This document shows positions 16,191 to 36,876 of a DNA stretch of 64,000 bases, piece by piece. Below the pieces are notes generated by a model. The model saw nothing but the letters and a program-made list of their open reading frames with translations, was not told where the DNA came from and ran no database searches. The translations under genes and the position numbers were made by a program. Each line of letters opens with the position of its first letter. Position 1 is the first letter of the stretch. Source of the stretch: Candidatus Eiseniibacteriota bacterium (GTDB taxonomy: Bacteria; Eisenbacteria; RBG-16-71-46); assembly GCA_038231135.1 (NCBI GenBank), contig JBBRLX010000013.1:1-64000 (forward strand). The letters run 5' to 3'.

Positions 16191-16224
16191 CCAACTCCCT
16201 TCGCGCTCGCGCGCCTGCTGCGTG

Positions 16225-16626
16225 TCATTCGTCGTCATCGGGCCAGCGATCGATGCCATAGAGTCCCGCCTTCATGGTCTTGAGCGCGAGCAGCGCACAC
16301 TTGAGCCGCACCGGACCGAGCTCGATGCCGAGCATCTCGAGCACGTCGCCGCTGCCGAGCCGCTTCGCCTCGTCCAGCTTCATGCCTTCGATGCGCTCGG
16401 TCAGCATCGAGGCCGCCGCCTGGCTGATCGAGCAGCCGTGGCCGTTGAACCGCGATTCGACGATCACGTCGTCCCGCACGCGGAACTCCATGCGCAGCCG
16501 GTCACCGCACAGCGGATTCGAATCCTCGAACGCGAAGTCCGGCTGGTCGAGCGTGCCGTGATTCCGCGGGTGCTTGTAGTGCTCGAGGATCGTCTCGCGG
16601 AACAGCTCGTCGAATTCGCCCATCAT
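16225..16626 (-). CDS. sufU: SufU/IscU-type scaffold
   Basis: ILEHYKHPRN, NPLCGD, GCSIS, RLKCA. Confidence 0.92.
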   Translation of the reverse strand: MMGEFDELFRETILEHYKHPRNHGTLDQPDFAFEDSNPLCGDRLRMEFRVRDDVIVESRFNGHGCSISQAAASMLTERIEGMKLDEAKRLGSGDVLEMLGIELGPVRLKCALLALKTMKAGLYGIDRWPDDDE

Positions 16627-17882
16627 CCGAACACCTTGCGGGCACGGTGCAGCCCGCGCACGAGCGCATCGATGTCATCGGTCGTGGTGTAGCAGTGGAA
16701 CGACGCGCGCGCCGTCGCCGGCACCCCGAACCTCACGTGCAGCGGCATCGCGCAGTGATGGCCGGCGCGCACCGCGATGCCGTCTGCGTCGAGCACCGTG
16801 GCGATGTCGTGCGGGTGCAGGTCGCCGAGCGTGAACGCGATCGCGGCGCCGCGGCGATCGGCGCCCGGGCCCAGCACGCGCAGCTCCGGCACCTCGAGCA
16901 GCCGCGGCAGCGCATAGTCGACGAGTTCTCGATCGTGGGCCCACACCGCGTCCATGCCGACGCCTTCCAGCCAGTCCACCGCCGCGCCGAGTCCCACGGC
17001 CTCGGTGATCGCCATGGTGCCGGCCTCGAACTTCCATGGGACGTCGTTCCAGGTCGAGCCTTGGAGCGTCACCTCGCGGATCATCTCGCCGCCACCGAGG
17101 AACGGCGGCATGGATTCGAGCAGCGCCCGGCGCGCCCACAGCACGCCGATGCCGGTGGGCCCCAGCATCTTGTGACCGGTGAACGCCACGAAGTCCGCGC
17201 CCAGCGCGCGCACGTCGACCGGCAGATGCGGGACGCTCTGCGACGCGTCGACGAGCGCGAGCGCGCCGGCGTCGTGGGCCATGCGCGCCAGCTCCGCCAC
17301 CGGGTTCACGGTGCCGAGCACGTTCGAGATGTGCACGACGCTCACCAGATTCACGCGGCCGCGGGCCAGCTCGGTCGCTGCGCCCTCGAGGTCGAGCTCG
17401 CCCGCGTCCGTCACCGGGATGAACCGCAGTTCCACGCCGCGCTCGGCGGCGAGGATGTGCCACGGCACCAGGTTCGCGTGGTGCTCCATCCCGGTGAGCA
17501 GGATGGCGTCGCCGGCCACGAGATTCGCGCGCGCCCACGAGTAGGCGACGAGATTGATCGACTCGGTCGCGTTGCGCGTGAACACCACCTCGGCGGGTGA
17601 CGGGGCGCCGATGAAATTCGCGACGCGGCGGCGCGCGTCCTCGTAGGCGGCGGTCGCCTGTTCGGCGATCCGGTACACGCCTCGGTGGATGTTCGCGTTG
17701 CAGGTGCGGTAGTGGCGGTCCATCGCCTCGAGCACCGCGTCCGGCTTCTGCGACGTCGCGGCGCTGTCGAGGTAGACCAGCGGGCGGTCCCGGTCACGCA
17801 GGATCGGGAACTGCTGCCGCAGCGCGTGCGCGTCGAGCGCACCGCGCACCTGTGCCGGCGCTGGATCCCGCGCGAGCGTCAC
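16623..17882 (-). CDS. sufS: Cysteine desulfurase SufS
   Basis: YLDSAATSQKP, TGHKM and RAGHHCA (class II). Confidence 0.95.
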   Translation of the reverse strand: MTLARDPAPAQVRGALDAHALRQQFPILRDRDRPLVYLDSAATSQKPDAVLEAMDRHYRTCNANIHRGVYRIAEQATAAYEDARRRVANFIGAPSPAEVVFTRNATESINLVAYSWARANLVAGDAILLTGMEHHANLVPWHILAAERGVELRFIPVTDAGELDLEGAATELARGRVNLVSVVHISNVLGTVNPVAELARMAHDAGALALVDASQSVPHLPVDVRALGADFVAFTGHKMLGPTGIGVLWARRALLESMPPFLGGGEMIREVTLQGSTWNDVPWKFEAGTMAITEAVGLGAAVDWLEGVGMDAVWAHDRELVDYALPRLLEVPELRVLGPGADRRGAAIAFTLGDLHPHDIATVLDADGIAVRAGHHCAMPLHVRFGVPATARASFHCYTTTDDIDALVRGLHRARKVFG

Positions 17883-17925
17883 GTTCGCCTCCCCGTCCGG
17901 CCGGCCGCGGGCGTCGCGCCCAGCC

Positions 17926-19275
17926 TCAACCGATCTTCCGCTCGATCTCGCGGCGCAGGGCCTCGCGCACGCGATCGAGTGGAATGCGGTCGAGCACCGG
18001 AGCGAAGAACCCCTCGACGATCAGCCGCTGCGCCTCGAGCCGCGGCAGGCCCCGCGCCATGAGGTAGTACATCTGCTCGTCGTCGACGTGCCCGATCGTC
18101 GCGCCGTGCGTGCAGCGCACGTCGTTCGCGAGGATCTCGAGGCCGGGGATGCTGTCGGCGCGAGCCTGGTCCGACAGCAGCAGGTTGCGGTTCGCCTGGT
18201 AGGCGTCGGTGCGCTGGGCGCCCTCGCTCACCTGGATCAGCCCCTGGTACACGCTGCGCGCGCGGTCCTTGAGGCAGCTCTTGATGAGCAGGTCGCTCGT
18301 CGTGTGATCGACCAGGTGCCGCTGCAGCGTATGCACGTGGAAGTGCTGGCGTGAGTCGCCGAACATGAACCCGTGCACGAATGCCTGCGCGCCCGGGCCG
18401 GCGAGATCGAAGTACGCATTCGCCTTCGCCATCCGGCTGCCGAGCACCGTCTGCACCCACTGCAGCTCGGCCCCGCGGCCGATCCGGGCGCGGTGGTTCG
18501 AGTACTCGTAGACGTTGCGGTCCCAATCCTGAAGCGTCGCGAACACCAGCCGGGAGTCGTCGCCGACGAACACCTCGGTGCCGCCCAGGTGGCTCGTGAT
18601 GCCGTTGCCGCTCTGGGACAACTGCTCGTCGATCACGGTGGCCTGGGCGTTCCTGCCCAGCACCACGACCGACCGCGTCGCCGCGATCACGCCGGGCGCG
18701 TCGAGCCACTGCACGAACCGGATCGGCAGCGCCGCCTGGACGCCGTCCGGCACGTGAACGAACACGCCGCCCGCGTGCAGCGCGGATCCGATCGCGGTCC
18801 ACCGGTCGTAGGCGCCGTCGATCAGCGAGCCGTAGTGAGCCTGCAGCAGGCTGCCATGGTGCGCGAACGCGTGCTCGAGCGAACACACCGTGACGCCCTG
18901 GCGGGCCAGCTCCTCGGGCACGCTCTCGAATACGACGTCGCGGTTGTGCTGGACGACGATCGCGGCGGCGCCGGCGTCCTCGGCCAGACGGTCGCGAACC
19001 GCCTCCGGCAGATCGCCGAGCGAGCGAGCCGGTGCGCCGGACACGAACGGTTCGAGACTGCCGATCGCCGCCTCGAGCGTGCGGAAGTCGGTGCGACGCC
19101 ACAGCTCGTCCTCGCGGCCGGGGAACGGCAGCACGACCGCCGCCGCGGCGGCGATGCGGCGCTGCTCCGCGGCCCACTCGGGCTCGCCGGCGGCGCGTGC
19201 CCGCGCGGCGGCACGTGTGAACCAGGCATCGAAATCGAGAGCCGGTGGCGGCGCCATCTGAACGGGCATCGTCAT
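17926..19275 (-). CDS. sufD: Fe-S cluster assembly protein SufD
   Basis: [25 protein letters not shown]. Confidence 0.95.
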
Positions 19276-20687
19276 CCGACCGAGCCCTCCATCTGGAGCT
19301 GGATCAGGCGGTTCATCTCGACCGCGTATTCCATCGGCAGCTCCTTCACGATCGGCTCGATGAAGCCCGACACGATCATCGCCGCGGCCTCCTCCTTGCC
19401 GATGCCACGGCTCTGCAGGTAGAAGATCTGCTCGTCGCCGATCTTGGACACCGTCGCCTCGTGCCCGATCGAGACCTGGTCCTCTTCGATCTCCATGTAG
19501 GGATACGTATCGGACCGCGATTCCGGATCGAGGATCAGCGCGTCGCAATTGACCGTGCTACGGCTGTTCACCGACCCCTTCGTGACCTTGACGAGCCCGC
19601 GATAGCCCGCGCGCCCACCGTCCTTGCTGATGGACTTCGAGATGATCTTGCTCGTGGTGTTCGGCGCCGCGTGCGTGATCTTGGCGCCCGCGTCCTGATG
19701 CTGATCCTTGCCCGCGAACGCGATCGACAGCACCTCGCCGTGGGCCCCCGGCTCCTTGAGGATGACGGCGGGGTATTTCATCGTGAGCTTGGATCCCAGA
19801 TTCCCGTCGACCCACTCCATGGTGGCGTCTCGATACGCGACGGCACGCTTCGTCACCAGGTTGTAGACGTTGTTCGACCAGTTCTGAATGGTCGTATAAC
19901 GGCACCGGCCGCCACGCTTCACGATGATTTCGACAACCGCGGAATGCAATGAATCACTCGAATATATCGGGGCGGTACAGCCTTCCACGTAATGCACGTA
20001 CGCGCCTTCGTCGACGATGATCAGCGTGCGCTCGAACTGGCCCATGTCGCGGGTGTTGATGCGGAAGTACGCCTGCAGCGGCACGTCGACCTTGACGCCC
20101 TTGGGCACGTAGATGAACGAGCCGCCCGACCACACCGCGGAATTGAGCGCCGCGAACTTGTTGTCGTTGAACGGAATCACGGTGCCGAAGTATTCGCGGA
20201 ACAGCGCCTCGTGCTCCTTGAGCCCGTGATCGCACGACAGGAAGATCACGCCCTGCTGCTCGAGGCTCTCCTTGATCTTGTGGTACACGACCTCGGAGTC
20301 GTACTGGGCGCCCACGCCCGACAGGAACTTCTGCTCCGCCTCGGGAATGCCGAGCTTGTCGAACGTGCGCTTCATGTCGGCGGGCACGTCGTCCCACGAC
20401 TTCACTTCGTCCGACGTCGGCTTGACGTAGTAGTAGATGTCCTGGAAATCGATGTGCGTGAGATCGCCACCCCAGGTGGGCAGCGGCTTCTTCCAGAACG
20501 TCTCGAGCGCCTTCAGCCGGTAGTCGAGCATCCACTGCGGCTCGCCCTTCATGGCCGAGATCTCGGCCACGATCGCGGGATCGAGGCCCTTACGGCTCTT
20601 GAACACGTGCTGCTCTTTGTCGTGGAACCCGAACTTCTCCGCGTATTCGCCGCGAAGGTCGAGCCCGGTGTTGTCGGTCGTGGTCAT
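19272..20687 (-). CDS. sufB: Fe-S cluster assembly protein SufB
   Basis: [29 protein letters not shown]. Confidence 0.97.
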
Positions 20688-21484
20688 CGTGCCTCCACTT
20701 CGTTCGCGACGCGGACCCAGTCGTAGCCCTTGCCTTCGAGCTCCAGCGCGAGGCCGGGGCCGCCGGACATCGCAATGCGGCCGTCGATCATGACGTGCAC
20801 GAACTGCGGCTTGATGTAGTTGAGGATGCGGTTGTAGTGCGTGATCACGAGCACGCCCAGCTCCGGACCCGCGAGCGTGTTCACGCCCTCCGACACGATC
20901 TTGAGCGCGTCGATGTCGAGTCCGGAATCGGTCTCGTCCATCACCGCGATCTGCGGCTTGAGCAGCGCCATCTGGAGGATCTCCGCGCGCTTCTTCTCGC
21001 CACCCGAGAAGCCGTCGTTCAGGTAGCGGGTCGCGAACGACTCGTCCATGCGGAGCTTCGCCATGCTGTCGCGCAGCAGCGCCCGGAATTCCTTGGGGTT
21101 GATCCCCTTGCGATGCGGCACCGTGCCGTTGCCCTCGTGGCCCGCCTGCAGCCGCGCGTTGAGCGCGGTGCGCAGGAAGTTCGCGACGGTGACGCCCGGG
21201 ATCGCGACCGGATACTGGAACGCCATGAACAGGCCGCGGCGCGAGCGCTCGTCGGGCTCGAGTCCGAGCACGCTGTCACCCTGGAACAGGATGTCGCCGC
21301 CGGTCACCTCGTAGCGCGGATGCCCCATGAGCGTGTTCGCGAACGTGCTCTTGCCCGAGCCGTTCGGCCCCATCAGCGCATGGATCTGGCCCTTGCTCAC
21401 TTCGAGGGACAGCCCCTTGAGGATTTCCTTGCCCTCCACGGCCACATGGAGGTCCCTGACGATCAGATCCGGCGTCGTGCTCAT
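20684..21484 (-). CDS. sufC: Fe-S assembly ATPase SufC
   Basis: [28 protein letters not shown]. Confidence 0.97.
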
Positions 21485-21581
21485 TCAGATTCCTCGATTC
21501 CGCGATTCGCGGTCGGTTGCGTGTCGATCGGCACCGCGCTCGCGGTGTTCATGCGCCGGGGGCTCCGGCGCGGCAGTTGCA

Positions 21582-21944
21582 TCAGGCGGAGAAGCTCTCT
21601 CCGCAGGCACAGTTGTGACGCACGTTCGGGTTGTTGAACTTGAAGCCCGAGCCCATGAGGCCCGTCACGAAGTCGATCTCGGTGCCCGCGAGCAGCGTCA
21701 TGCTCTTCACGTCCACCACCAGCTTGACGCCATTGCTGTCGACGATCTGATCGCCCTCGGCGCCGCCGTCACAGAACTCCATGAAGTACGAATTGCCGGA
21801 GCAGCCGCCGCCGCGCACCCCGATGCGGAGAGCCTGTTCGGGGGTTCCGCGCTGCGTGAGCAGCTCTTTTACCTTGTCCGCCGCGGCCAGCGACATCGTG
21901 ACGCCGGTCCGGATGGGATTCTGATTCATGATCGGAAGAGTCAT
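21582..21944 (-). CDS. sufA: A-type Fe-S carrier (IscA/SufA/HesB)
   Basis: GGGCSG...NPN...CACGESF. Confidence 0.93.
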   Translation of the reverse strand: MTLPIMNQNPIRTGVTMSLAAADKVKELLTQRGTPEQALRIGVRGGGCSGNSYFMEFCDGGAEGDQIVDSNGVKLVVDVKSMTLLAGTEIDFVTGLMGSGFKFNNPNVRHNCACGESFSA

Positions 21945-21963
21945 GGCGCTCGTGGGTCCTCGT

Positions 21964-22518
21964 CTATGGGTCGGTTCGGGTGTGAATGTCTTCGATGCGA
22001 ATCATCGCCCGCGCGGCCGGGCGTTGCGGCGACGACGTGAGACCGGCGACCAGCGCCGGCTCCTGATCCACGCCGTGATCGAATGAACAATGGACGCAGC
22101 CCAGGACGTCGTCCGGGGAGTCGCAGCGACGGCACGTTTCGAGCCACGCCAGCCCCTCGCCCAGCTCGCGCTCAAGCTGCTGATATTTTCGAATCGACTC
22201 GCGCGTGTCCCCGAGCTTGCGCTCGAACAACGCGCGCAAATCGTTCATCGCCTCGGTGCCGATGCCGGATCCCCACCACGCCTGCAGCAGCTCACGCATG
22301 TCCTGCAGCGAGAACCCCAGCGTGTGGAGCAGGTCGATCCAGCGCACCCGGTCGGCCGCCGCGGGCTCGTACAGCCGGAACCCGCCGCTCGACCGGGTCG
22401 CCGGCTGCAGCAGACCCAGCTCCTCGTAGAGATGGATCGCCCGGACCGTCTTACCGGTCTGGCGGGCCAGGTCTCCGATGCGCAGCAACTGAGGATGTTG
22501 GATCACCGGCGCTCCCAT
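21964..22518 (-). CDS. MerR-family regulator with C-terminal CxxC-x8-CxxC
   Basis: RIGDLARQTGKTVRAIHLYEELGLL...GFRLY; tail CRRCDSPDDVLGCVHC. Confidence 0.9.
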   Translation of the reverse strand: MGAPVIQHPQLLRIGDLARQTGKTVRAIHLYEELGLLQPATRSSGGFRLYEPAAADRVRWIDLLHTLGFSLQDMRELLQAWWGSGIGTEAMNDLRALFERKLGDTRESIRKYQQLERELGEGLAWLETCRRCDSPDDVLGCVHCSFDHGVDQEPALVAGLTSSPQRPAARAMIRIEDIHTRTDP

Positions 22519-22525
22519 CGAGGCC

Positions 22526-22585
22526 AACCCTTACGTACACGTTAGATTCACACTGGAACGTACCGCGCCACGGTGAGTTCGTCAA
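22526..22585 (-). promoter_or_regulatory. Sigma70-like promoter of the merR-suf operon plus downstream dyad
   Basis: TTGACG (22585-22580), 17 nt, TACGTT (22562-22557); imperfect dyad CCTTACGTACACGTTAG at ~22529-22545. Confidence 0.55.
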
Positions 22586-23131
22586 TTACAGCATTCCAGT
22601 GCATGACAATTGCCTGACGTCAAGCCGGTTGGTGTGGCTGGCGGTGGATCTCATGATGCGCCCGCCGGCGGAGCGCGATCACCGATGGGCGACTCCTCCC
22701 GGGTCGTGAATTTTTTTCTGGCCCCGTTTTCCATGTGGACTTTCTGTCGCATGTCGGCTGCCGGTGCGATCGGCGAAAACCCTCCCCGCCCCACTCGACC
22801 ATGCGACGCAACGGACGTGATCGCAATGCGTCATGCCGAATCGTCGTGGCCATCCACGCCGTCGTGGGGCCGCCGATTCCGGCGAACGGGACCGGGTTGA
22901 AATGACCTGATTCTGTGATCCGGAAACATTGCGCTTTGCGTTGCGTGGGTTAGTTCCCGCTAAAGGCAAGTTGCAACGCCTCCGATATCCCGTTTCAGAA
23001 ATCACCCTGGTGACCGGCCGCGAGGCCGGAGCGATGCGGCGCGTGACCACGCCGGCGCACCGCCATCAGGCAAGGCGGCGGCGCGGATGACCCACGCCGC
23101 CGCGGACCACGGGATACGGGAGGACACGGAA

Positions 23132-23641
23132 ATGCATGACTCGAGGAACAGGTGGCTCACCGCGCTGCTCGCGATCGCGATCGCGACTCCGGTCGCGTCC
23201 GCCGCGCGCGCGGACGTGCAGGTCAACCTCACGGCGCAGCGCGTCGTCCACGACACCCAGGGCCACGACGTGCTGGTGGCCGGCGATCAGGCCCGTCCGG
23301 GCGAGTTGCTCGAATACCGCGCGGTGTATCGCAACACCGGCTCGCGGAACGTGCAGAAGTTGATGGCGACGCTGCCCATTCCGCAGGGCATGGAATACGT
23401 CCCGAGCACGGCCGCGCCCGCCCTGGTGCTGGCGAGCACCGACGGCCGGAAGTTCGAGCCGGTTCCGTTGCAGCGCAAGGTCCGGCTCACCGACGGGCGT
23501 GAGGTCATGCGCGACGTGCCGGCCGGCGAATACCGCTGGCTGCGCTGGCCGATCGGCACGCTGCCCGGTCGCGGCGAGCGCCTGGTGCAGGCGCGCGTGC
23601 GGGTGTCCTCGCTGGTCGCCGTCTCGAATTCACGCCACTGA
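23132..23641 (+). CDS. Secreted single DUF11-like protein lacking the isopeptide Lys/Asp (putative chaperone)
   Basis: GGAGGA RBS; signal peptide ending ARA; ARPGELLEYRAVYRNTG...LPIPQGMEYVP...VQARVRV. Confidence 0.8.
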   Translation: MHDSRNRWLTALLAIAIATPVASAARADVQVNLTAQRVVHDTQGHDVLVAGDQARPGELLEYRAVYRNTGSRNVQKLMATLPIPQGMEYVPSTAAPALVLASTDGRKFEPVPLQRKVRLTDGREVMRDVPAGEYRWLRWPIGTLPGRGERLVQARVRVSSLVAVSNSRH

Positions 23642-23769: not shown

Positions 23770-26379
23770 ATGATCGGTGTTCATCCTGTTCCCGGCCGCC
23801 GCACGTCGCGCATCCTGTGCGCGGCGCTGCTCGGCGGCTCCCTGCTGCTCGCGACACTCGCGGGCGTCCGCTCCGCCATCGCGGCCCCGGCCGCCGGCAC
23901 GCCGATCGGCAACCAGGCCTCGGCGTCCTACCTCGACGCTTCGTCCACGAGTCGCACGGCGACGTCCAATCTCGTGACCACGATCGTGCAGCAGGTCGCG
24001 AGCTTCACGCTGAACGCCAACGGCAACCGCATCGCGGCGCCGGGCGGCCAGGTGGTGTTCCCGCACTCCCTCACCAACACCGGCAACGGCACGGATACGT
24101 TCCCGCTGTCGCTGACGAATCTCGGCGGCGACAACTTCGACCTCACCGGGCTCACGATCTACCCGGACGCGAACGGCGACGGCGTGCCCGACAACTACAC
24201 CGCGATCAACACGACCGGGCCCCTCGTGGCCGGCGACGTGTTCCAGTTCGTGGTCGTGGGCAACGTGCCCGGCACGCAGATCGGCGGTGACATCTCGCGC
24301 GTGCGCGTGAACGCCGCGAGCGCGTTCGATGGCGCTCAGACCTCGACGAACACCGACGTCACCACGGTGTCCGGCAACGCGGTGATCAGCGTCACCAAGT
24401 CGATCAGCCAGCCCGCCGGCAACTCGCCCAGCGGTCCCTATACCTACACGCTGTCCTACACGAACTCCGGCAACAACGCCGCCACGGCCCTCAAGCTGTC
24501 GGACGCGATTCCCGCCGGCATGACGTATGTCGCGGGCAGCGCGCGGTGGAGCGTGACCGGCGCCGCGGTGCTCACGGACGCGAGCAACGTGGACGCGCAG
24601 GGTGTCGTCCCGAACACCGTGGTCTACGACTTCGGCGTCACCGCGGGCGGGACCATGACCGCCACGATCAACACGGTGCCCGCCGGCGGGAACGCCACGC
24701 TGACGTTCAACGTCAACGTGAACGCGGGCCTCGGGCCGCAGACGATCAACAACAGCTCCACCTACTCGTACAACGATGGCGCAGGCAACGTGGGTCCGTT
24801 CACGACGAACCTGGCGCCGTTCGACATCAACCAGAGCGTGTCGCTCACGTTCACCGGCCAGACGATCGCGGCGGCGGTGCAGGGCGCGACGCTCACGTAC
24901 ACGAACACGGTCACGAACACCGGCAACGGTTCCGACCGGTTCGACATCACGTTCGGCACGAACACGTTCCCGGCCGGCACGAACATGACGCTGTACCAGA
25001 GCGACGGCGTCACGCCGCTCTCGGACTCGAACGGCAACGGCACGCCGGACACCGGTCCGCTCGCGGCCGGTGGCACGTACGCCATCGTGCTCAAGGCCAT
25101 GCTGCCGCCGTCGGCCACCGGCGGTCCCTACTCGGTGCAGAAGATCGCGACGTCGGTGTCGGATCCGTCGCGCACCGCCACGGCCACCGACGTGCTGACT
25201 ACGATCACGGCGAACGCGGTCGACGTCACGAACAACTCGGTCGGCGGTCCCGGCGTGGGCGCCGGCCCCGAAGCCTCCGCGGTCGTGACGCTGCCTATCC
25301 TGCCCGGCAACACCGGGCGGTTCACGCTGTTCGTCACGAACAACGCGACGCTCGCGGACAACTTCGACATGGCGGCGAGCACCGACCCGACGTTCGCGTC
25401 GGTCACGCTGCCCGCCGGCTGGGGTGTGACGTTCCGCAACGTGGTGAACGCGGTGATTACGAACTCGGGCAACGTCGGCGCCACGAACAGCGTGCAGGTG
25501 TTCGCCGACGTGACGGTGCCGGCGGGCTACGTGGCGGGCACGGTGGACCTGTACTTCCGCGCGCGCTCGCCCGTGTCGCTCGCCACCGACCGGCTCCACG
25601 ACGCCGTGAGCGTCACGGCGCAGCGCGGCCTGACGCTGGTGCCGAACGGCAACGGCCAGGTCACGCCGGGCGGCGTGACGACCTACACCCACATCCTGGC
25701 GAACACCGGCAACGTGGTGGAGGGCGCGGGCACCGGCAGCGTCGTCGCGCTCACGATGACGAATTCGCAGGGGGCGTGGGGATCGGCACTGTACGTCGAC
25801 TCCAACAACAACGGCTCGTTCGACGCGGGTGACGCGGCGATCTCCGATCTCGGCACGCTCGGCGGCATCGCGCCGGGGGCCAGCCTGCGACTGTTCGTGC
25901 GGGTGTTCTCGCCGGCCGGAGCCCCGATCGGCCAGACCGATCTCACCACGCTGACCGCGACGACCACGAACGGCACGTACATCACCTCGGTGCCGCCGGT
26001 GGTGCAGGCGACCGACCAGACCACGGTGCTGAACGGCCAGCTGTCGATCGTGAAGCAGCAGGTGCTCGACGCCAACTGCGACGGCGTTCCCGACGGCGCG
26101 TACGGCGGCGGCAACATCACGGCCGGCGCCAACCCCGGCGTGTGCCTGCGATATCAGATCGTGGTCACCAACGTCGGCACCGCGTCGGTGACGAACGTGG
26201 TGGTGGACGACGCCACTCCGGCCGGCACGAAGTATTCGAGCGCGGTCGCGGCGTCCGTCACGCAGGGGTCGATCGTGACCCCGGCGAACGGCGCGGCGGG
26301 ATCGGTGGTGGCCACCATCGGCACCATCGCCCCCAACCAGTCGGTGACGATCACGTTCGGCATCCGGATCGACCCGTAG
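23770..26379 (+). CDS. Secreted multi-Ig DUF11 protein (putative major filament subunit)
   Basis: Signal peptide; N-terminal GTPIGNQA segment; repeated TNTGNxxDxF Ig modules; one complete and one C-terminally truncated DUF11. Confidence 0.85.
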   Translation: MIGVHPVPGRRTSRILCAALLGGSLLLATLAGVRSAIAAPAAGTPIGNQASASYLDASSTSRTATSNLVTTIVQQVASFTLNANGNRIAAPGGQVVFPHSLTNTGNGTDTFPLSLTNLGGDNFDLTGLTIYPDANGDGVPDNYTAINTTGPLVAGDVFQFVVVGNVPGTQIGGDISRVRVNAASAFDGAQTSTNTDVTTVSGNAVISVTKSISQPAGNSPSGPYTYTLSYTNSGNNAATALKLSDAIPAGMTYVAGSARWSVTGAAVLTDASNVDAQGVVPNTVVYDFGVTAGGTMTATINTVPAGGNATLTFNVNVNAGLGPQTINNSSTYSYNDGAGNVGPFTTNLAPFDINQSVSLTFTGQTIAAAVQGATLTYTNTVTNTGNGSDRFDITFGTNTFPAGTNMTLYQSDGVTPLSDSNGNGTPDTGPLAAGGTYAIVLKAMLPPSATGGPYSVQKIATSVSDPSRTATATDVLTTITANAVDVTNNSVGGPGVGAGPEASAVVTLPILPGNTGRFTLFVTNNATLADNFDMAASTDPTFASVTLPAGWGVTFRNVVNAVITNSGNVGATNSVQVFADVTVPAGYVAGTVDLYFRARSPVSLATDRLHDAVSVTAQRGLTLVPNGNGQVTPGGVTTYTHILANTGNVVEGAGTGSVVALTMTNSQGAWGSALYVDSNNNGSFDAGDAAISDLGTLGGIAPGASLRLFVRVFSPAGAPIGQTDLTTLTATTTNGTYITSVPPVVQATDQTTVLNGQLSIVKQQVLDANCDGVPDGAYGGGNITAGANPGVCLRYQIVVTNVGTASVTNVVVDDATPAGTKYSSAVAASVTQGSIVTPANGAAGSVVATIGTIAPNQSVTITFGIRIDP

Positions 26380-26459
26380 CACCGGGCCGGTCTTCATCCT
26401 TCCGCTCCGCGGCGCCATCCTTAGCGATGCGCGCCGCGGAGCACGGGTGTTCGTCCGCC

Positions 26460-29400
26460 ATGCAGATGATCGAAGCGCGTTCCGGGTGCCGGTTCCGTCT
26501 CCCCGCCTGGTTCGCGGTGGTGGCGGGCTTCGCCATGGGCGCTCTGAGTGAGGTCGCGGCGCCACCGGCGATTGCGGGCGCGCCGCCCGGCACGCCGATC
26601 GACAACGTGGCCTCCGGGACCGGCATCGACAGCGCGACGCTCGAGCCGATCGAGGTGCGATCGAACCTGGTGCGGGCGATCGTCGGCACGTCGCAGGCCA
26701 TCGTGCTCGACGGCAGCGACACTCGAACGGCGCCGCCCGGCGCGCACCTCACATTCGCCCATCACGTGGCCAACCTCGGCAACGTCGCGACCACGGTGCG
26801 ATTCAGCTGTGCGACGGGGGCCGGCAGCGACTTCACGCTCGCGAACCCGGCGCTGCTCGTGGACGTGAACGGCGACGGCATCGCCGGGCCCGGCGAACCC
26901 GTGCTCGCGAGCGGCGATTCGCTGACGCTCGGCCCCGGCGAGGCCGCCGAGCTCGTCGCGCAATGCGACGTGCCCGCGGCCGCGGCCGGTTCGAGTCGCG
27001 CCATGCTCGAGGTCGGCGCGTCGCCCACGTTCGGCGGCCCCGTCCTCACGGCCACGGACACCGTGCTCACGCCGCCGCCGCCCACGATCGCGTTCTACGG
27101 CGACGGTTCGTTCGCCGCGCCGATCCGGGTGTCGTCCGCCAACCGCCCGCTGTATCTGCAGGCGGTGGCGCCGGGCTGCGACCTGCGCCCCGGCGTGCGC
27201 GACACGCTGCAGCTCGCGATCCGCTCCGTCCTCACCGGCGACGTGCAGAACTTCCGCGCGATCGAGACCGCGGCCAACTCGGGCGTGTTCCGCGTGGAGC
27301 CGTACGTCGCCACCGCGCTGGTGGGCGCGCTCGCGACGACTTCGCCGGGAGTGCTCCAGGTGCGCCCCGACGACGAAGTCGTCGCCACGCTCGACGGCTG
27401 CGGCGGAACGCAGGTCGAGGCGCGGGTATTCATCGAGCCGCGCGGCGTGGTGTTCGACGCGGCGAACGGCTATCCGGTGGCGGGAGCGCGCGTGGCGCTG
27501 ATCGACGTCACCGGCGCCGCCAACGGCGGCGACGCCGGCGGCCCCGCGCGCGTGTTCCTGGCGGACGGCGTCACTCCCGCGCCCGCGGACGTGCTCACCG
27601 ACGCCTCGGGCCGCTACCACTTCGAATGGGTCGCCGCGAGCACGTATCGCGTCGACATCGCGGTCCCCACCGGCTTCGGGTTCCCGAGCGCGCTCGCGCC
27701 GGGTGCGGTCGCGCCCGGCTACGTGATCGACGCCGACGGCTCCTACGGCCGGCCCTTCACGATCGCCGCGGGCGGCGGTCCGGTGCGGTTCGACCTGCCG
27801 CTCGACGCGCTGGGCACCGCCACGATGTTCGTGGAGAAGTCCGCTGGCCGGCCGTTCGCGGAGCCGGGCGACGCCGTGGACTACACCGTGCGGATCGTGA
27901 ACGCCTCGACGCGCGCGATCACCGCGGCGCGACTGGACGACGCGCTGCCGCCGGGGTTCGCCTACGTGCCGGGCACGGCGCGCCTCGACACCCGCGCCCT
28001 CGCCGACCCCTCCCCCGGCGCGCGCGTGTCGTTCGCGCTCGGCACGCTCGCGCCGAACGCGACGGTCGAGTTGCGCTACCGCGCGCGGATCGGCGCCGGC
28101 GCGGCCCCCGGCGATGCGTGGAACCGCGCCGTCGCGTCGGGCGACGGCGCGTCGTCCAACGTCGCTGCGGCGAAGGTGACGGTGACGGGCGGGGTGTTCG
28201 CCGACGAGGCGGCGCTGCTGGGCACGGTGTACGTCGACCGGAACGGCGACCGCCGGCGCGGATCCGACGACCCCGGCATGCCGGGCGTGCGGCTGTATCT
28301 CGACGACGGCACGTTCGCGATCAGCGACGGCGCGGGCCAGTACAGCTTCTACGGCATCACGCCCCGCACGCACGCGCTGCAGGTCGATGCGACCACGCTG
28401 CCGCCGGGCGCCCGGCTGCTCGCCACGTCGCACCGCGACGCCGGCAGTCCCGGATCGCGCCTGGTGGCGCTTCAGCGCGGCGATCTGGTGCGCGCGGACT
28501 TCGCGCTCGCCGCGGATTCCGTCACGCGCGAGGCGCCGGCCGAACGGCGCCGGCTCATCGCAGGCGACGACGAGCTCGGCCGCGGGGTGCACCGGCCGCT
28601 CGACACCCACGACGATCCGGCGCTGCCCGGCGACCCGCGTTCGCGGCCGCCGGCGGGACTCGTGGACGAGGGCCGCCGCATGCCGCTGTTCGGCCCGGCC
28701 GCGCGCCAGCAGGGTGCGAACCTGCCGGGCGACGCCGCGCCCATCGTGGCGCCGGCGGCATCACCGGCGCCGCCGCCCACGGCACAGCAGCCGGATCCCA
28801 GGGAATCGACTTCGATCGGTGATGCCGGAGCACCGCCGCGCGGGATGGACGGCGGAGCGCAGGACATCGTCGAACGCTCGCTCGCCACCGACGTCGGCAC
28901 CGGATTCATCGGCCTCGCCGACGGCGACACGCTGGACGTGGATCAGATCACGGTGCGGGTGCGCGGGCGGCAGGATCACGCGCTCGAGCTGAGCGTGAAC
29001 CACGTGGCGATCCCCGCCACCCGGGTGGGACGCCGCGTGACGCTCGAGCGCCGCGGAGCCGAGGCGTGGGAATACGTGGGCGTGAACCTCGCGCCGGGCC
29101 CGAACCTGCTCGAGTTGACCGAGCGTGACGCCGGGGGCGCCGCGACCGGGCACGCCGCCATCACGGTGCTCGCGCCCGGGCACTTCGAGCGCATCGAGCT
29201 GCTGGCGCCGGCCACCGTCGCGGCCGACGGACACTCGGATGCCGTGGTGCGGTGCGCACGCTCGACGCGCATGGGGTGCCCGCGGCCTGCCGCTCGATCG
29301 TGACGCTCGAGACCACCCGCGGCCAGTGGCACACGACCGATCTCGATCCCGCGTCTCCGGGGCTGCAGATCGCCGTGGTGGGCGGCACCGCCGAGGCGCG

Positions 29401-31936
29401 GCTCACGGCGCCGTCCGAGCCCGGCACGGCGACGGTGCGCGCCACGGCCGGCGGCATTCACGGCGACGCGCCGCTCGAGTTCGTACCGGAGCTGCGGCCG
29501 CTGCTCGCGGTCGGCAGCGTGGAGGGCATGCTGGCGTGGAATCGTGCGCGGGGATTCGCGACCCGCGACCTCGCGCGCACGGGGTTCGAGCAGGCGTTCA
29601 CGAGTCTCGTCGCCGGGTCCGACGACGGCGGTCTCGGCGGCGGCGCGCGCGCAGCGCTGTTCCTCAAGGGACGGCTGAGCCGCGACGTGCTCGTCACGCT
29701 CGGCTACGATTCCGACCGGCCGGCGAATCTGCGCCGCCTGCGCGACATCCAGCCCGACGCGTTCTATCCCGTCTATGGCGACGCCTCGGTGCGCGGCTAC
29801 GAGGCGCAGTCGACGGGCCGGCTGTATGCGCGCCTCGATCGCCGCGGCGCGGCACTCGCCTACGGCGACTTCGTCGCGCAGGGCGCGAGCGGCGCGCAGA
29901 GCCTCACCCAGTACAGCCGCAGCCTCACCGGCGTCCAGCAGCACTGGGAGAGCTCGCGGCTGCGCGTCGACACGTTCGCCAGCCGGGCCCTGGCGGGCGA
30001 GCGCGTGGAGGAGTTCCCCGGCCGTGGCATCTCGGGACCCTACACGCTCGCGCGCGCGCCGATCGTCGAGAACAGCGAGCGCGTCGAGATCGTGGTGCGG
30101 GACCGCAACCAGCCGTCGGTGATCGTGACCGCCACCGCGCGCGAACGCTTCGCCGACTACGAGATCGAGCCGCTCACCGGCCGGATTCTGTTCAAGGAGC
30201 CGGTGCCGGCGTTCGACGCCGCGCTCGACCCGGTGTCGATCCGCGTGAGCTATTCCGTGGAAGGCGGCGGGGATCCGGTGTGGGTGTCGGGCATGGAGAC
30301 GCGGCTCAAGCTTGGCGGCGCGAGCGAGGTCGGCGCCACGCTCGTCGACGACCGCGACCCGCTCCATCCCTACCGGCTCGGCGGCGTATTCTTCGGCCAT
30401 CGCCTGGATGCGCGCTCGACGTTCGAGGCGGAGCTCGCCCACTCGGCGAACTCGGGCGCCGGTGGCAGCGCGGCGCGGTTCGAGCTGCGCCGCGACGGCG
30501 CCGATGGCGATGGCCGGCTGTTCGGATCGATCACCGACGGCGGCTTCGTCAATCCCCACGCCGGCTTCAGCCCCGGTCACGGCGAGGCCGGCCTGCGCTG
30601 GAACAAGCGGCTCGACGCGCGCACGCGCCTGCTCGCGGACGGCGTGTTCAGCTCCGACGCCGCGGCCGCCACGCGGCACGGCGGATTGCTGCTCGGCCTC
30701 GACCGCTCGTTCGGCGGCTCGGTGCACGGCGAGTTCGGCGCCCGCATCGCGGGCGAGCACGCCCGCCCCGGCCCCACCGATCCCACGAGCCTGTCGCTGC
30801 GATCCAAGCTGCTCGCCCAGCTGCCGTGGCATCCGGAGCTGAGCGCCTACGGCGAATACGAGCGCGACGTGCTCGGCACCGGGCGCGAGCTCGCAGCACT
30901 CGGCGCGGAGTACCGGTTGCGCGCGCACGGGCGCCTGTATGTGCGCCACGAGCTGGCGTCCACGCTGGGCAGCGCATTCGAGCTGTCGACGTCGCAACGC
31001 CGGCTGGCATCCGTGGCCGGGTTCGACGCGGACCTCGGTCCCTCGACGCACGTGTTCAGCGAATACCGGATCGCCGACGCGCTGCCCGCCCGCGAGGCCG
31101 AGGCGGCTCTCGGGCTGCGCAACACCTGGCAGCTCGATGGCGGGCTGCGCGTCACCGGCGCGTTCGAGCGCGTGCACCCGCTGCAGGGCGGCGACGGCAC
31201 GGGCCCGAGCACGGCGGTGAGCGGCGGCATCGAATCCACCGACGCGGACGACGTCAAGGCGTCGGCGCGCATGGAGCTGCGCACCTCGCGCGCCAGCGAC
31301 AACTGGCTGTCGAGCACCGCGGTCGCGGTGCGGCTCGACAGCTCGTGGTCCGCGCTTGGCCGCAATCTGGCCACGATCACCGACGAACGCGCCGCCGGCG
31401 TCACCACGCGCGAGCGCATGCAGCTCGGCCTGGCGTTCCGGCCCTCGGACGACGCGGCGTTCGACGCGCTCGGTCGCTACGAGCTGCACCTGGATCGCGA
31501 GCACCCCACGCCCGTCACCCGCAGCCGCCGCACGGCCCACGTACTGTCGGCCAATGTCACCGGGCAAATGTTCGACGTGGTGGACGTGTCGTTCGCGTAC
31601 GCGGCCAAGCGCGTGTTCGACCGGTCCGATGCCATCGGCTCGAGCGGGTCCGCGCAATGGGTGCACGGCCACTGGTCGCGCGAGTTCGGCGCGACCTGGG
31701 ATGCGGGACTCAACACCAGCGCGCTGTTCGCGGACGGCGGACGGCGCGACGGCCTCGGCGTCGAGCTGGGCCGCAGCCTCGCAAACGGCCTGTGGCTGTC
31801 GGCCGGCTGGAACCGGTTCGGGTATTCCGACCCCGATCTGCCCGACGAGACCTACACGCGCGCCGGCTTCTACATGCGCATGCGCGCCCGGCTCGCGCCG
31901 TCGCTGTTCGACCGGCTCACGCGGGGGACGCCGTGA
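26460..31936 (+). CDS. Large secreted DUF11/SdrD-B/Ig protein with C-terminal OM beta-barrel; split by a 1-nt frameshift at ~29251
   Basis: ORFs ending at 29303 and 31936 join as ...DAVVRVRTLDAHG... if one G is restored (~1825 aa). The last ~800 aa show amphipathic beta-strand patterning. Confidence 0.8.
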
Positions 31937-34900
31937 TGCGGCGGCTCGTTGCGGGGCTCCGCGTGGCCGCCACCGCCGCGGTGATCGCGGCGACGCTGTT
32001 CGCCGCGGGCACGGCCCGGGCGCAGATCGTGCGCTCGTTCACGCCGCGGTTCTCGACCAACGACCACGGCGACGTGACGCTGATCGGCAACACGCTGATG
32101 AGCTGCAGCGGCAACGGCAATGCCTGCAAACAGGGCCGTCTCGGCGCCGGCGGCAGCATCAACGACGACGACTTCGCGATGGCGTACGTCGACATCGACG
32201 CCGACGGCACCACGTTCTGCTCCAGCAACGCCACGTTGGCGCTGCCGGTGGGCGCCACGGTGCTGTGGGCGGGTCTCTACTGGCAGGGCGATTCCAACAA
32301 TGGCGCGCGCAACCAGGTGAAGTTCTCGACGCCGGTGGCGGCCTACACCGCGATGACCGCGACGCAGCTCGACGTGACCGGCACCGCGTATCAGGGGTTT
32401 ATCGACGTCACCGCGCGCGTGCAGGCGGGCGGCAACGGCGCCTATACGGTGGCGAACGTACAATCGACGACGGGCGCGACCTATTTCGCGGGCTGGGCGC
32501 TGGCCGTGGCCTACCGGCTCGCCAGCAATCCCTCGCGCAACCTGGTGGTCGAGGACGGTTACGCCCAGGTCGCGGCCGGCGCCACGGTGACGATCCCCGT
32601 GAGTGGGTTCCTGACGCCACCCGGCGGCATCGTGAACACGCGGCTCGGCGTGGTGACGGGCGAGGGCGACCTCGGCCTCACGGGAGACGCGTTCCAGATC
32701 AACGGCACGACGTTGTCCGACGCCGCGAATCCGGCGGACAACTTCTTCAACAGCTCGATCAGCCAGTTCGGCGTCAACGTCACCACCAAAAACCCCAACT
32801 ACGTGAACCAGCTCGGCTGGGACGTCGACATGGTGTCGGCGAACGGCGTGCTGCCGAACGGCGCGACGAGCGCCACGATCACGCTGACGTCCGCCAGCGA
32901 CCGCTACTACCCGTCGGTCGTGACGTTCGCGACCGATCTCTACCAGCCGGTGTACACCGGCAACGGGTTCTTCAAGTCGGTGGCCGATCTCAACGGAGGA
33001 TCGGTGCGGCCCGGCGACGTGCTGGAGTACACCGTTCGCATGAACAACTCCGGCGACGATGCCTCGACGAACACCGTCGTGCGCGACACGCTGCCCGCCA
33101 ACGTCACCTACGTCGCGGGCTCGCTGTCGGTGGTGAACGGCCCGAACACCGGCGCCAAGACCGACGCAATCGGCGACGACGTGATGGAGTACGACCCGGC
33201 CACGCGCATCGTCACCGCGCGACTCGGCACTGGCGCCACGGGCACGCTGGGCGGCCGCGTCGACCCGGACGTGCAGACCACCGTGAAGTTCCGCGCGGCG
33301 GTGAACCTGCCACTCGCGAACGGCAGCGTGGTGTCGAACCAGGCGCTCGCGAATTTCAACGCCGCCCAGCTCGGCACCGCGCTCAGCGCCGCGAGTGATG
33401 CGGACACGCTAACCGCGGGCAACCAGCGCACGAATGTGACGGTGGTGGCCCAGACGCTGAGCGGCACCGTGTTCGAGGACGTGAACTACGGCGGCGGCGC
33501 CGGGCGCACCAAGGCGGCGTCCGCCGGCGTGGCGCGGCCGGGCGCGCGCGTCGAGTTGTACGGTGCTGCCGGCCAATACCTCGCGGCCGACACCACCGAC
33601 GTCAATGGCCTGTACTCGTTCGACGGCATCGGCCCCGGCAGCCTCACCGTGCGGGTCGTGAGCTCCATGGTGACGTCGTCGCGGCCCGGCGCCGTCGCCG
33701 GACTGCTGCCGGTGCAGACGTTCCGCGTGGACGCCTCCAGCGGCGCCGCGGTGAACGACGCGGTCCGTGTCGGCGGCGAGGTGCCGTCCAAGGTCGACGC
33801 CGGCATGAACACGACGAACGCGACGCTGGCGTCGCTCACGACGGCCGGCGCGACCGCTCAGTCGATCGCGCCGGTCACCACGGGCACCGTCAACTTCACG
33901 GGCGTGGACTTCGGGTTCAACTTCGATGTCATCGTGAACGCCAACGACTCGGGCCAGGGCAGCCTGCGGCAGTTCCTGACCAACGCGAACGCGCTCCAGA
34001 ACACCGGCCTCGCGCAGTCCGGGCTCACCGGCGGCATCGAGACGTCGATCTTCATGGTCAGCGACGGCGCCGCCCACGCGGGATTGCGGACCGGGCTCGC
34101 GAGCCTGCTCACCGGCGGCGTTGTCGCGATCGCCCCCATCACGACGCTGCCCGCGATCACCGACCCGGCGCGGCTCGACGGCACCACGCAGACCACGAAC
34201 GTCGGCAACACCAACGCGGGCACGCTGAATTCCACGATCGCGGTGGGCGCCGACGGCCTCACGGTGACCGCACTCGCGCGGCCGGAGGTTGAGATCAAGG
34301 ACGGCGCCAGCCTGGCGCTCGGCGTCGACGTGCAGGCGTCGGGCGTCACGCTCACCGGGCTCGCGATCTATGGCTTCGGCAACACACCGGCGAACGACGC
34401 CCACGCCAACGTGCGCATCGGTGCGACCGCGGGCACGGCGGTGATCGACGGGTGCGCGATCGGCGTGAGCGCCTCGAGCTTCGCCGACCCCGGCGCCGCG
34501 GCGCGCAGCGGTGGCGACGCGGTGCGTGTGATCGGCGGCGACGACGGCATCCTGCGCAACAGCATCGTGGCCTACGCGGCGGGCAACGGCGTCGCGCTGG
34601 CGACGAACTCCGATCGCTGGACTCTCACCGGCAACGAGATCCGCGGCAACGCCATCGGCAATGCGTCGCGCGACGCGGTGTCGCTCGAGGCGAGCGCGAG
34701 CGACGTGGTGCGCGGCAACCGCATCGCGGACACCGAGGGCTGCGGCATCGACGCTCGCACCAGCACCGGGTCCGGCACGTTCGAGAACAACACGATCTCG
34801 CGCAGCGGCCTCGGCGCCGCCGGCACGCCCGAGACGCCCGGGGTGCGGCTCGGGGGTACGGCGAACCGCGTCGACCGCAACGTGCTGTTCGACAACTACG

Positions 34901-36876
34901 GCGCGGGCGTGCTGGTGATGTCGAGCTCCTCGGCGAACACCATCACCAAGAACTCGATGTACAACAACGGCGGCATCACGAACAACGCCGCCGCCGCCGC
35001 GACCGGACAGCTCGGCATCGATCTCGAGTCGGCCACGGACGACGTGAACCGCGGCACCGCGCCCTATGTGACGCTGGACGATCTCGCCGACGCGGACGCG
35101 GGCGGCAACGGGCTCTTGAACTTCCCGGTGCTCGAGAGCGCCGTGCTCGCGGGCGGCAACCTGACGCTCACCGGCTGGGCGCGACCCGGGTCCGTGATCG
35201 AATTGTTCGTGTCGGATTCCGATCCGTCCGGATTCGGCGAGGGCAAGACCTGGCTGACGACACTCACCGAAGGCTCGGTGTCGGACCTCGACGCGTCGTC
35301 GAGCACGTTCTCCGGCACGATCAACGGACTCGTCCAGGGCACCGACAACACGAACCGGTTCCGGTTCACGTTTGCGGCCCCGGGGGGCGTCGCGGGCGGC
35401 GTGCGGCTCACGGCGACCGCCACGCTGTCGCAGGCGACATCCGAGTTCTCGGGACAGGTCACCGTCGCGGGCGGCGTGAGTGTGGCGGGCTATGGCTATC
35501 TGGATGTGAATCACAGTCTCAATCGCGACGCGGCGGAGGCCGGCACCGGCGCCACGCTCTACGCGAAGCTCGTCGCGTCCTCGACCCCGGGCAGCGCCCA
35601 GGCGGTCGTGGCGATCGACGCCGTGACCGGCGCGTATGCGTTCTCCTACGTGACCGCCGGTACCTACACGATCGTGCTCGACGACAACAACGCCGCGAGC
35701 GACGTCGCTCCCGCCTATCCCGTGGGCATGATCGGCACCGAGGTTTCGAACGGGGCGCGCCCGCTCACGGTCGCCAACGCGAACCTGGCGGACCAGGACT
35801 TCGGCATGTGGCGCGGCAGCCGGGCCGACGGCATCGTGTTCCGCGACGACGGCGCGGGCGGCGGCACCGCCAACGACGGCGTGAACCAGGCCGGCGAGGG
35901 CGCCGTGGGCGGCGTGCGCGTCGCGCTCGCGAACGCGGCGTGCGCAGGCGGCCGCTGCGACAGCACGCTCACCGACGGCGCGGGTGCCTTCACGCTGTGG
36001 ATCCCGAACGGCGCCGTGGGCACCAGCACGCAGGCGCTCGAGACGAATCCCTCGGGCTGGGTGTCCACCGGCGGCGGCGCCGGGACGACCGGTGGCGCCT
36101 ACTCGCGCAACTCCGACATGGTCACGTTCACCCCGGCAGGCGGCGTGGCGTATTCCGGGCTCCGGTTCGGGGACGTCCCGCCCAACACGTTCGCGCCGAA
36201 CGGCAACCGCAGCGGCACACCGGGCGCCGCGGTGTTCCACCCGCATACCTTCATCGCCGGCAGCGGCGGCAGCGTGAGCTTCACGGCCGTCGAATCGCCG
36301 TCGCCCGCGATTCCCGGCTGGACGGCGGAGCTGTACCGCGACCTGAACTGCAACGGCAGCGTGGATGCCGGCGACAACCCCGTGACGGCACCCGTGGTCG
36401 TGACCGCGGGTCAGACGCTATGCCTCGTGCTCAAGCACTTCATCCCCGGCGGCGCGCCCGCCGGCGCCAGCGAGCAGGTGACACTCGGCGCCAGCATGAG
36501 CTACACGAACGCGTCCCCCGCGCTCGTCACGGTCGTGTCGCTGGGCGACCGCACGACGGTGATCTCCGCCGGCAGTCTCGAGATCGTGAAGACCGTGGAC
36601 CTCGCGAGTGCCAGGCCTGGCGACGTGCTCACCTACACGATCACCTACCGCAACCTGGGGCCCGCGCCGCTATCGGCGATCCTGCTGCAGGACGCCACTC
36701 CCGCCTACACCGTGTTCCAGAGCGCGAGCTGCGGCGCCGCCGGCAACGGCATCACCGCCTGCAACGTGACCGCGCAACCGGCGGTGAACGCGTCCGGCCC
36801 GGTGCGCTGGACGCTGACCGGCGCACTCACGCCCGGGGGAGCGGGGGCGGTGACGTTCCAGGTGAAGGTGCAGTAG
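31936..36876 (+). CDS. Large secreted adhesin (head domain, DUF11, SdrD-B-like, parallel beta-helix, truncated C-terminal DUF11)
   Basis: TGATG overlap; signal peptide ending ARA; SGTVFEDVN and GIVFRDDG SdrD-B-like starts; GNxI/NxI beta-helix rungs; 1646 aa. Confidence 0.85.
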   Translation: MRRLVAGLRVAATAAVIAATLFAAGTARAQIVRSFTPRFSTNDHGDVTLIGNTLMSCSGNGNACKQGRLGAGGSINDDDFAMAYVDIDADGTTFCSSNATLALPVGATVLWAGLYWQGDSNNGARNQVKFSTPVAAYTAMTATQLDVTGTAYQGFIDVTARVQAGGNGAYTVANVQSTTGATYFAGWALAVAYRLASNPSRNLVVEDGYAQVAAGATVTIPVSGFLTPPGGIVNTRLGVVTGEGDLGLTGDAFQINGTTLSDAANPADNFFNSSISQFGVNVTTKNPNYVNQLGWDVDMVSANGVLPNGATSATITLTSASDRYYPSVVTFATDLYQPVYTGNGFFKSVADLNGGSVRPGDVLEYTVRMNNSGDDASTNTVVRDTLPANVTYVAGSLSVVNGPNTGAKTDAIGDDVMEYDPATRIVTARLGTGATGTLGGRVDPDVQTTVKFRAAVNLPLANGSVVSNQALANFNAAQLGTALSAASDADTLTAGNQRTNVTVVAQTLSGTVFEDVNYGGGAGRTKAASAGVARPGARVELYGAAGQYLAADTTDVNGLYSFDGIGPGSLTVRVVSSMVTSSRPGAVAGLLPVQTFRVDASSGAAVNDAVRVGGEVPSKVDAGMNTTNATLASLTTAGATAQSIAPVTTGTVNFTGVDFGFNFDVIVNANDSGQGSLRQFLTNANALQNTGLAQSGLTGGIETSIFMVSDGAAHAGLRTGLASLLTGGVVAIAPITTLPAITDPARLDGTTQTTNVGNTNAGTLNSTIAVGADGLTVTALARPEVEIKDGASLALGVDVQASGVTLTGLAIYGFGNTPANDAHANVRIGATAGTAVIDGCAIGVSASSFADPGAAARSGGDAVRVIGGDDGILRNSIVAYAAGNGVALATNSDRWTLTGNEIRGNAIGNASRDAVSLEASASDVVRGNRIADTEGCGIDARTSTGSGTFENNTISRSGLGAAGTPETPGVRLGGTANRVDRNVLFDNYGAGVLVMSSSSANTITKNSMYNNGGITNNAAAAATGQLGIDLESATDDVNRGTAPYVTLDDLADADAGGNGLLNFPVLESAVLAGGNLTLTGWARPGSVIELFVSDSDPSGFGEGKTWLTTLTEGSVSDLDASSSTFSGTINGLVQGTDNTNRFRFTFAAPGGVAGGVRLTATATLSQATSEFSGQVTVAGGVSVAGYGYLDVNHSLNRDAAEAGTGATLYAKLVASSTPGSAQAVVAIDAVTGAYAFSYVTAGTYTIVLDDNNAASDVAPAYPVGMIGTEVSNGARPLTVANANLADQDFGMWRGSRADGIVFRDDGAGGGTANDGVNQAGEGAVGGVRVALANAACAGGRCDSTLTDGAGAFTLWIPNGAVGTSTQALETNPSGWVSTGGGAGTTGGAYSRNSDMVTFTPAGGVAYSGLRFGDVPPNTFAPNGNRSGTPGAAVFHPHTFIAGSGGSVSFTAVESPSPAIPGWTAELYRDLNCNGSVDAGDNPVTAPVVVTAGQTLCLVLKHFIPGGAPAGASEQVTLGASMSYTNASPALVTVVSLGDRTTVISAGSLEIVKTVDLASARPGDVLTYTITYRNLGPAPLSAILLQDATPAYTVFQSASCGAAGNGITACNVTAQPAVNASGPVRWTLTGALTPGGAGAVTFQVKVQ

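Follow-up and report, generated by a model that had tools for sequence, protein, structure and literature searches.

The major subunit of a four-gene operon in a 64,000-nucleotide stretch of a Candidatus Eiseniibacteriota contig (the window) was confirmed to carry a DUF11 domain divided between its two termini, and this subunit probably forms the shaft of a long linear covalent surface fiber in which Lys762 of one copy is locked to Asn48 of the next, with catalysis by Asp814. The 869-aa subunit is encoded on the forward strand (23770..26379), as are all features described below unless stated otherwise, and is laid out as donor, Ig, intact CLIPPER, Ig, Ig, Ig and acceptor. A Sec-type signal peptide (23770..23883), with cleavage before approximately A39 placed by eye and from relatives, precedes a donor β-hairpin (23884..23994; residues 39–75) that corresponds to the last two DUF11 strands by hhalign and strand pattern and holds the predicted isopeptide Asn48, assigned by homology (codon AAC, 23911..23913). 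Ig modules 1 (23998..24378), 3 (24838..25209), 4 (25213..25614) and 5 (25621..26028) were delimited by the AF2 strand pattern, module 4 also being NPCBM_assoc-like by Pfam, and module 1 is followed by an intact DUF11/CLIPPER domain recognized by PF01345 (24382..24831; residues 205–354) with Lys210 (24397), Asp245 (24502) and Asn328 (24751). The acceptor (26038..26376), assigned by PF01345 and alignment, is a DUF11 domain without its last two strands that contains Lys762 (AAG, 26053, in LSIVK) and Asp814 (GAC, 26209, in DDATP); the protein ends in ITFGIRIDP, and the ORF stops where the donor hairpin of a DUF11 domain would belong. The ORF, the Asn, Lys and Asp codon positions, the C-terminal end and the presence of four DxNxxG loops were all read from the sequence as first noted.

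An AF2 model of the full-length subunit, built from an alignment of 50 sequences (pLDDT 86.3, pTM 0.42), comprises an N-terminal hairpin, five β modules and a C-terminal module joined by linkers of 3–6 residues. The original prediction had placed about five Ig modules between the halves; the model contains exactly five, one of which had been missed as an intact DUF11 domain with Lys210, Asp245 and Asn328. Pfam matched DUF11 twice in the subunit, Foldseek searches with the full-length model returned generic tandem-Ig chains, and PDB sequence searches, including one with the family profile, returned no relative. Scans for promoters and terminators stayed at chance level.

By sequence, the two ends of the major subunit were shown to be complementary parts of one DUF11 domain, in line with the division between termini originally proposed. 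Using profiles built from an alignment of 117 sequences (A2), hhalign placed the acceptor on columns 1–115 of the subunit's own internal intact DUF11 domain (probability 98.3), with the donor falling on columns 115–150 (probability 58.8, pairwise E 1.3e-5). In these profile–profile alignments, Asn48 falls on Asn328, and Lys762 and Asp814 fall on Lys210 and Asp245, so that homology to the internal triad supports the anticipated roles of the donor Asn and of the acceptor Lys and Asp. The acceptor scored 39.2 bits and the internal domain 40.3 bits against PF01345, both above the gathering cut-off of 24.6; of the 114 profile positions, the match covered 14–81 in the acceptor, 2–84 in the C-terminal domain of the tip protein and 2–98 in the internal domain, and the donor hairpin alone had no Pfam match. 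The contiguous domain characteristic of CLIPPER is found in the internal copy, and the terminal one is interrupted by the end of the ORF; the CLIPPER order of the triad (first strand, middle, penultimate strand) is reproduced through sequence equivalence to the internal domain. The same order occurs in the solved CLIPPER domain, whose Lys-Asp-Asn bond was shown by crystallography as Lys715–Asn806, presumably catalyzed by Asp748 (PMC12617251).

All six triad residues, split and internal, were invariant in 120 listed sequences, query included, of 1,991 close matches. Among 131 distant relatives (35–52% identity; those of 800–1,050 aa among 150 listed representatives), Asn48 was retained in 129, Lys762 in 130 and Asp814 in 130, and the internal Lys210, Asp245 and Asn328 were retained in 127, 129 and 127. 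Because other Asn/Asp positions in the Ig repeats of the subunit are equally conserved, conservation alone is no proof of a bond. APC-corrected mutual information (324 sequences, Neff 205) did not single out donor–acceptor contacts, since two of the 25 highest-ranking pairs involving the donor had their partner in the acceptor; its second-strongest covarying pair was Cys770–Cys792 of the acceptor, likely a disulfide. Nine of 120 listed short matches are members of approximately 440 aa (P0288, P0292, P0293, P0295, P0299, P0307, P0312, P0313 and P0331) that have two spacer modules and keep Asn, Lys and Asp; these may be adaptors or compact majors.

Asp/Asn-rich loops of the DxNxxG type bind Ca2+, and the four such loops first noted in the major subunit are present as Dx[DN]x[DN]G motifs in modules 1, 3 and 5 (24166, 25024 and 25798) and in the acceptor (26068). 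Shuffled versions of the sequence contained a mean of 0.094 loops and never reached four (0/10,000). The loops at 24166, 25024, 25798 and 26068 were strictly kept in 115, 86, 90 and 46 of the 131 relatives, respectively; they are putative Ca2+-binding sites through which, as originally suggested, Ca2+ might stiffen the subunit.

Natural tandem fusions place acceptor and donor side by side in one chain. In P0121 (3,865 aa), P0122 (2,023 aa), L040 and L074, the whole unit is repeated to give 3–5 units, and at the junctions the acceptor's final strand leads directly to the donor of the next unit. Across the 12 junctions of these four proteins, which are not independent, three of them looking closely related, Lys and Asn were present in every case (12/12) and the catalytic position was Asp in nine and Glu in three; PF01345 matches at fused junctions reached to positions 97–106 (n = 7), four of the seven above the cut-off. 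The first L074 junction folded as one domain in a structure prediction (pLDDT 90, pTM 0.86) from an alignment of 51 sequences, namely seven junctions, 43 intact domains, which favor a one-domain result, and the window's acceptor region. This model aligned with BcpA (Z 14.6, rmsd 2.2, 135 aligned) and with CLIPPER 9IFR (Z 11.5, rmsd 2.2, 119/123 residues aligned), on a scale where unrelated Ig-like folds, such as integrins, score approximately 12 too. The completed junction in this fused relative is modeled as a CnaA-like β-sandwich, and the fused junction is thus predicted by folding to be one complete CnaA-type domain. Thermus TTHA1873 (PDB 7WWO/7WRK), a one-domain protein with a dimeric form, scored Z 11.9 against the completed junction and is possibly relevant. 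The fused majors of Nitrospirota (L040:7328-17695 and L074:91-12537) have 3–4 junctions, Glu replaces the catalytic Asp at the second junction of each, and in L040 a separate unfused major lies immediately upstream of the fused one.

The partners encoded downstream each carry one half of the domain. The base protein (26427..31936; approximately 1,830 aa, start codon uncertain) has an N-terminal donor (Asn at 26604), a stalk of Ig, DUF11 and SdrD_B modules and a C-terminal putative outer-membrane barrel, and the tip adhesin (31933..36876; 1,647 aa) combines a β-helix, SdrD_B and DUF11 and finishes in an acceptor (Lys 36589, Asp 36691). Complete tips, including that of the window, had the acceptor Lys and Asp in 36/36 cases and a free donor in 0/36. 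Of the 713 base homologs, 120 were listed; the donor scored in 117 of these, compared with 1/120 when shuffled, and its Asn was present in 112. Of those without the Asn, four appear to have lost part of the N terminus and another four carry Ser or Ala in its place. Base proteins with such a substitution (P0435, P0462, P0463 and P0470; L006 and L012) suggest a non-covalent, perhaps releasable, anchor. Given acceptor-only tips and donor-only bases, the order can be read as tip (acceptor), shaft (both) and base (donor), and the natural fusions agree with this head-to-tail polarity, upholding the original prediction on that point.

This gene order recurs in 79 GTDB loci surveyed from the best 80 of 260 confirmed stretches: the base gene lay directly downstream of the major in 67/69 loci, and a complete acceptor-ended tip lay within 10 kb of the major in 35/46, the others possibly exceeding the fetched flank. 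Hosts in the 79 loci include Eisenbacteria, Acidobacteria, Beta- and Gammaproteobacteria, Verrucomicrobia, Nitrospirota and Balneola/Gracilimonas. Beyond the 260 confirmed GTDB stretches, the spread of the major subunit is reflected in 1,200 representatives at E≤1e-30. In Granulosicoccus (L078:38-17332), the order is rearranged: the major is preceded by a second donor/acceptor protein and the barrel gene and is directly followed by the tip.

Atlas clusters matched by the C-terminal 815 residues of the base protein bear the names hypothetical or outer-membrane protein, and the putative barrel is assigned from these names; searches of Pfam and NCBIfam matched no usher or autotransporter family in the base protein, and Pfam matched no autotransporter β-domain. 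A layout of signal peptide, passenger and C-terminal putative barrel, possibly comparable to that of Type Va autotransporters, was seen in the base and its one-chain paralogues. In the window assembly, the base gene has a one-base frameshift near 29250. A truly broken gene was considered. An extra base at 29250 is present in the contigs of run X3 and of run X2, the latter at a depth of 11.8 and with no other difference over 8.2 kb, and the homologs are single ORFs in 59 loci; run X1 agrees with the window. Runs X1 and X2 are possible sources of the window's DNA, and the frameshift is either an assembly error or a real subpopulation variant.

The same genome encodes a 4,845-aa one-chain adhesin (L080:1370-15907, reverse strand, G000:C11) with a signal peptide, an unannotated head of approximately 340 aa, 28 DUF11 stretches, SdrD_B and a base-like C-terminal putative barrel, which shares 36% identity with the window's base over 890 residues. 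All 26 of its regex-delimited DUF11 segments carry the K, D and N motifs. Comparable giant adhesins were seen in G002, G009, G016, G019 and G020. The base C-terminal region occurred in 11 of 21 related genomes and formed two groups. The close group (44–55%) co-occurred with the major in 9/9 relatives having a major, these being kin and not independent; in the distant group, the six long members fetched all had 10–15 repeats and no free donor, two of them being incomplete at the stretch edge. The operon thus resembles, in a split and extendable form, a CLIPPER adhesin that is made as one chain and anchored by a barrel.

Upstream of the major subunit lies a small secreted acceptor mimic of 184 aa (23087..23641) with a TIGR01451 match and a truncated DUF11 shape; its gene is directly upstream of the major in 73/75 loci with room for it. 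The small protein aligns to the acceptor (hhalign probability 95.9), stopping at the same strand, and has Ala at the Lys column and Thr at the Asp column, residues present in 56/75 and 59/75 of the small proteins compared; a donor sought in these small proteins gave 0/75 matches. The small protein can be seen as a natural equivalent of a non-reactive catcher and is possibly a donor-capping chaperone.

In the proposed assembly, Sec export and signal cleavage would be followed by growth from the tip, whose acceptor would come first, and then by n shaft subunits. The N-terminal hairpin of each major copy would complete the truncated C-terminal CLIPPER of the previous copy and would then be locked by a self-forming Lys762–Asn48 isopeptide bond with Asp814 as the catalyst; the acceptor mimic, having neither Lys nor Asp, would cap free hairpins reversibly. 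The barrel protein would terminate the chain with its donor and would anchor and probably export the fiber, and the product would resemble the one-chain adhesins of head, CLIPPER stalk and barrel, assembled from parts.

The same trans locking could also involve one or a few shaft copies and yield a protein-spliced adhesin with a fixed short stalk rather than a long pilus. The finite 10–28 repeats of the one-chain paralogues and the 3–5 units of the fused majors fit such a stalk, the base donor could capture the chain early, and no assembly motor was seen among the four operon genes; however, a subunit with two self-compatible ends has no inherent stop, and the presence of the acceptor mimic in 73/75 loci suggests controlled repeated addition. 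We consider a fixed short stalk unlikely. Quite improbable, in our view, is a polymer formed by donor-hairpin complementation in which the Lys/Asp/Asn bond does not form in trans: the buried Lys and Asp (130/131) and the Asn on a separate piece (129/131) are kept on par with the intact triad, and Lys and Asp are precisely the residues missing from the mimic, although the Asn is not found in four base proteins, Glu replaces Asp at three fused junctions and the bond is absent from some DUF11 domains (PMC12617251). Trans locking may nevertheless be dispensable, since four base donors lack the Asn and oligomers of BsaA N35A persist until heated (PMC11580942). Self-closure, in which the donor fills its own acceptor as a ring or closed dimers form to give a stabilized monomer or small oligomer, is highly improbable even though tag/catcher pairs at both termini readily cyclize proteins (SpyRings, PMC7844731) and five spacers with 3–6-residue linkers leave bending room compatible with a six-domain ring, as the split is kept with only two spacers, where a three-domain ring would need bends of approximately 120 degrees per joint, acceptor-only tips and donor-only bases have no cis partner, and the natural fusions encode a linear order. 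A linear chain is therefore judged far more likely than a ring because of the two-spacer members, the fusions and the one-sided partners. The original prediction had reasoned that the spacers disfavor closure; a linear chain is still favored, but five spacers are not a sufficient reason for it, given that SpyRings cyclize.

Covalent polymerization of pili has been described for sortase pili, for BsaA and for archaeal threads, which in the literature compared all occur outside diderm bacteria. The closest mechanism to the linear covalent fiber proposed here is the exchange-and-lock of Clostridium perfringens BsaA, shown by mutants, in which an Asn on an N-terminal donor and a Lys and catalytic acid on an acceptor give an autocatalytic intermolecular isopeptide polymer (PMC11580942). 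The same residue placement is found here by sequence; BsaA differs in belonging to the TasA family, using a Glu catalyst, being SipW-linked and occurring in a monoderm (PMC11580942), whereas the present system has a CnaA/CLIPPER fold, a two-strand donor, a seven-module subunit, tip and barrel partners and diderm hosts. No TasA/camelysin homology was matched in the operon by Pfam, NCBIfam or a family profile against PDB sequences. The archaeal thread protein Saci_0406 likewise combines donor-strand complementation with an intermolecular isopeptide; unlike the subunit described here, it is a single-domain archaeal protein with a non-canonical bond from Asn to the N-terminal amine, linking n to n+2 (PMC9715654).

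The subunit shares with CLIPPER/DUF11 (PF01345; 9IFR; PMC12617251) the family, the CnaA-like fold, the Lys-Asp-Asn triad order and occurrence in diderms, where CLIPPER forms adhesin stalks. CLIPPER is described in that source as intramolecular only, whereas here the domain is divided between termini and between genes; the words "split" and "strand exchange" have no occurrences in the main text of PMC12617251, and its supplements might mention incomplete domains. As in SpyTag/SpyCatcher, a split isopeptide domain would reunite, and the small protein resembles SpyDock (PMC7844731). The SpyTag/SpyCatcher-like pair originally envisaged holds as a natural split but not as Spy chemistry: SpyTag was engineered from CnaB2 with a Lys-Asp bond and a single-strand 13-residue tag (PMC7844731), whereas CnaA-type matches and a two-strand Asn donor were found here, with a predicted Lys-Asn bond, a catalytic Asp and a hairpin of approximately 36 residues.

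Several other candidates were rejected as matches. TLP-1 fibrils have single-domain subunits with a one-strand donor (PMC11494351), Litorilinea GhlA is an unsplit one-chain DUF11 filament of 49 repeats (bioRxiv 2025.08.19.671072), the "DUF11" matches of Tafi are DUF1102 (PMC11821415), and the compared parts of PMC3206015 revealed no connection of DUF3233 to the split-DUF11 system. The DUF11 passages of PMC13297417, PMC10787695 and PMC8779699 are silent on such a system, and a full-text literature search, with subscription journals and supplements outside its scope, found no paper on a split DUF11 pilus. Exchange-and-lock polymerization as predicted here, set in a new fold and ending on a dedicated outer-membrane base, is apparently undescribed.

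Chaperone-usher pili (Fim/Pap; FimH, FimA, FimI/PapH) have an acceptor-only tip, a donor-plus-acceptor shaft, a donor-only terminator, an outer-membrane barrel and a small periplasmic helper. The system described here shares this polarity logic, and the incomplete Ig fold completed by a neighbor's N-terminal extension has its analog here in a two-strand donor. The differences lie in the hairpin donor, the predicted covalent lock, the terminator fused to a barrel and a helper that mimics the acceptor instead of donating a strand; no usher (PapC/FimD) or PapD-family chaperone was matched among the four operon genes by Pfam or NCBIfam.

We see an even balance for and against the broader proposal that a one-chain CLIPPER adhesin anchored by a barrel was cut within a CLIPPER domain and gave rise to a widespread class of diderm pili. 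In this proposal, multi-domain blocks would be joined into a stalk again by autocatalytic isopeptide ligation without sortase, a non-reactive catcher would set the pace as a chaperone and the barrel donor would end the chain. If true, the broader proposal would amount to a new route of secretion and assembly and to a family of tag/catcher pairs of natural origin. The proposed fiber itself would be a covalent pilus formed without sortase in several diderm phyla; it would assign a function to an outer-membrane protein family that has no annotation and would connect one-chain fibrillar adhesins with pili in evolution. Such putative naturally evolved Lys-Asn pairs could be supplied as tools and would likely be orthogonal to SpyTag. 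The cultured carriers Polaromonas aquatica 36b22 and Roseateles aquatilis CCUG 48205 make the system testable.

On the reverse strand of the window, translations of 15430-22527 read as a Suf-type cluster for Fe-S assembly together with a MerR-like regulator, and this region is divergent from the operon. Convergent on the operon end, also on the reverse strand, is a gene at 37084-38706 that we take to resemble an FHA, GAF and PP2C-type phosphatase combination.
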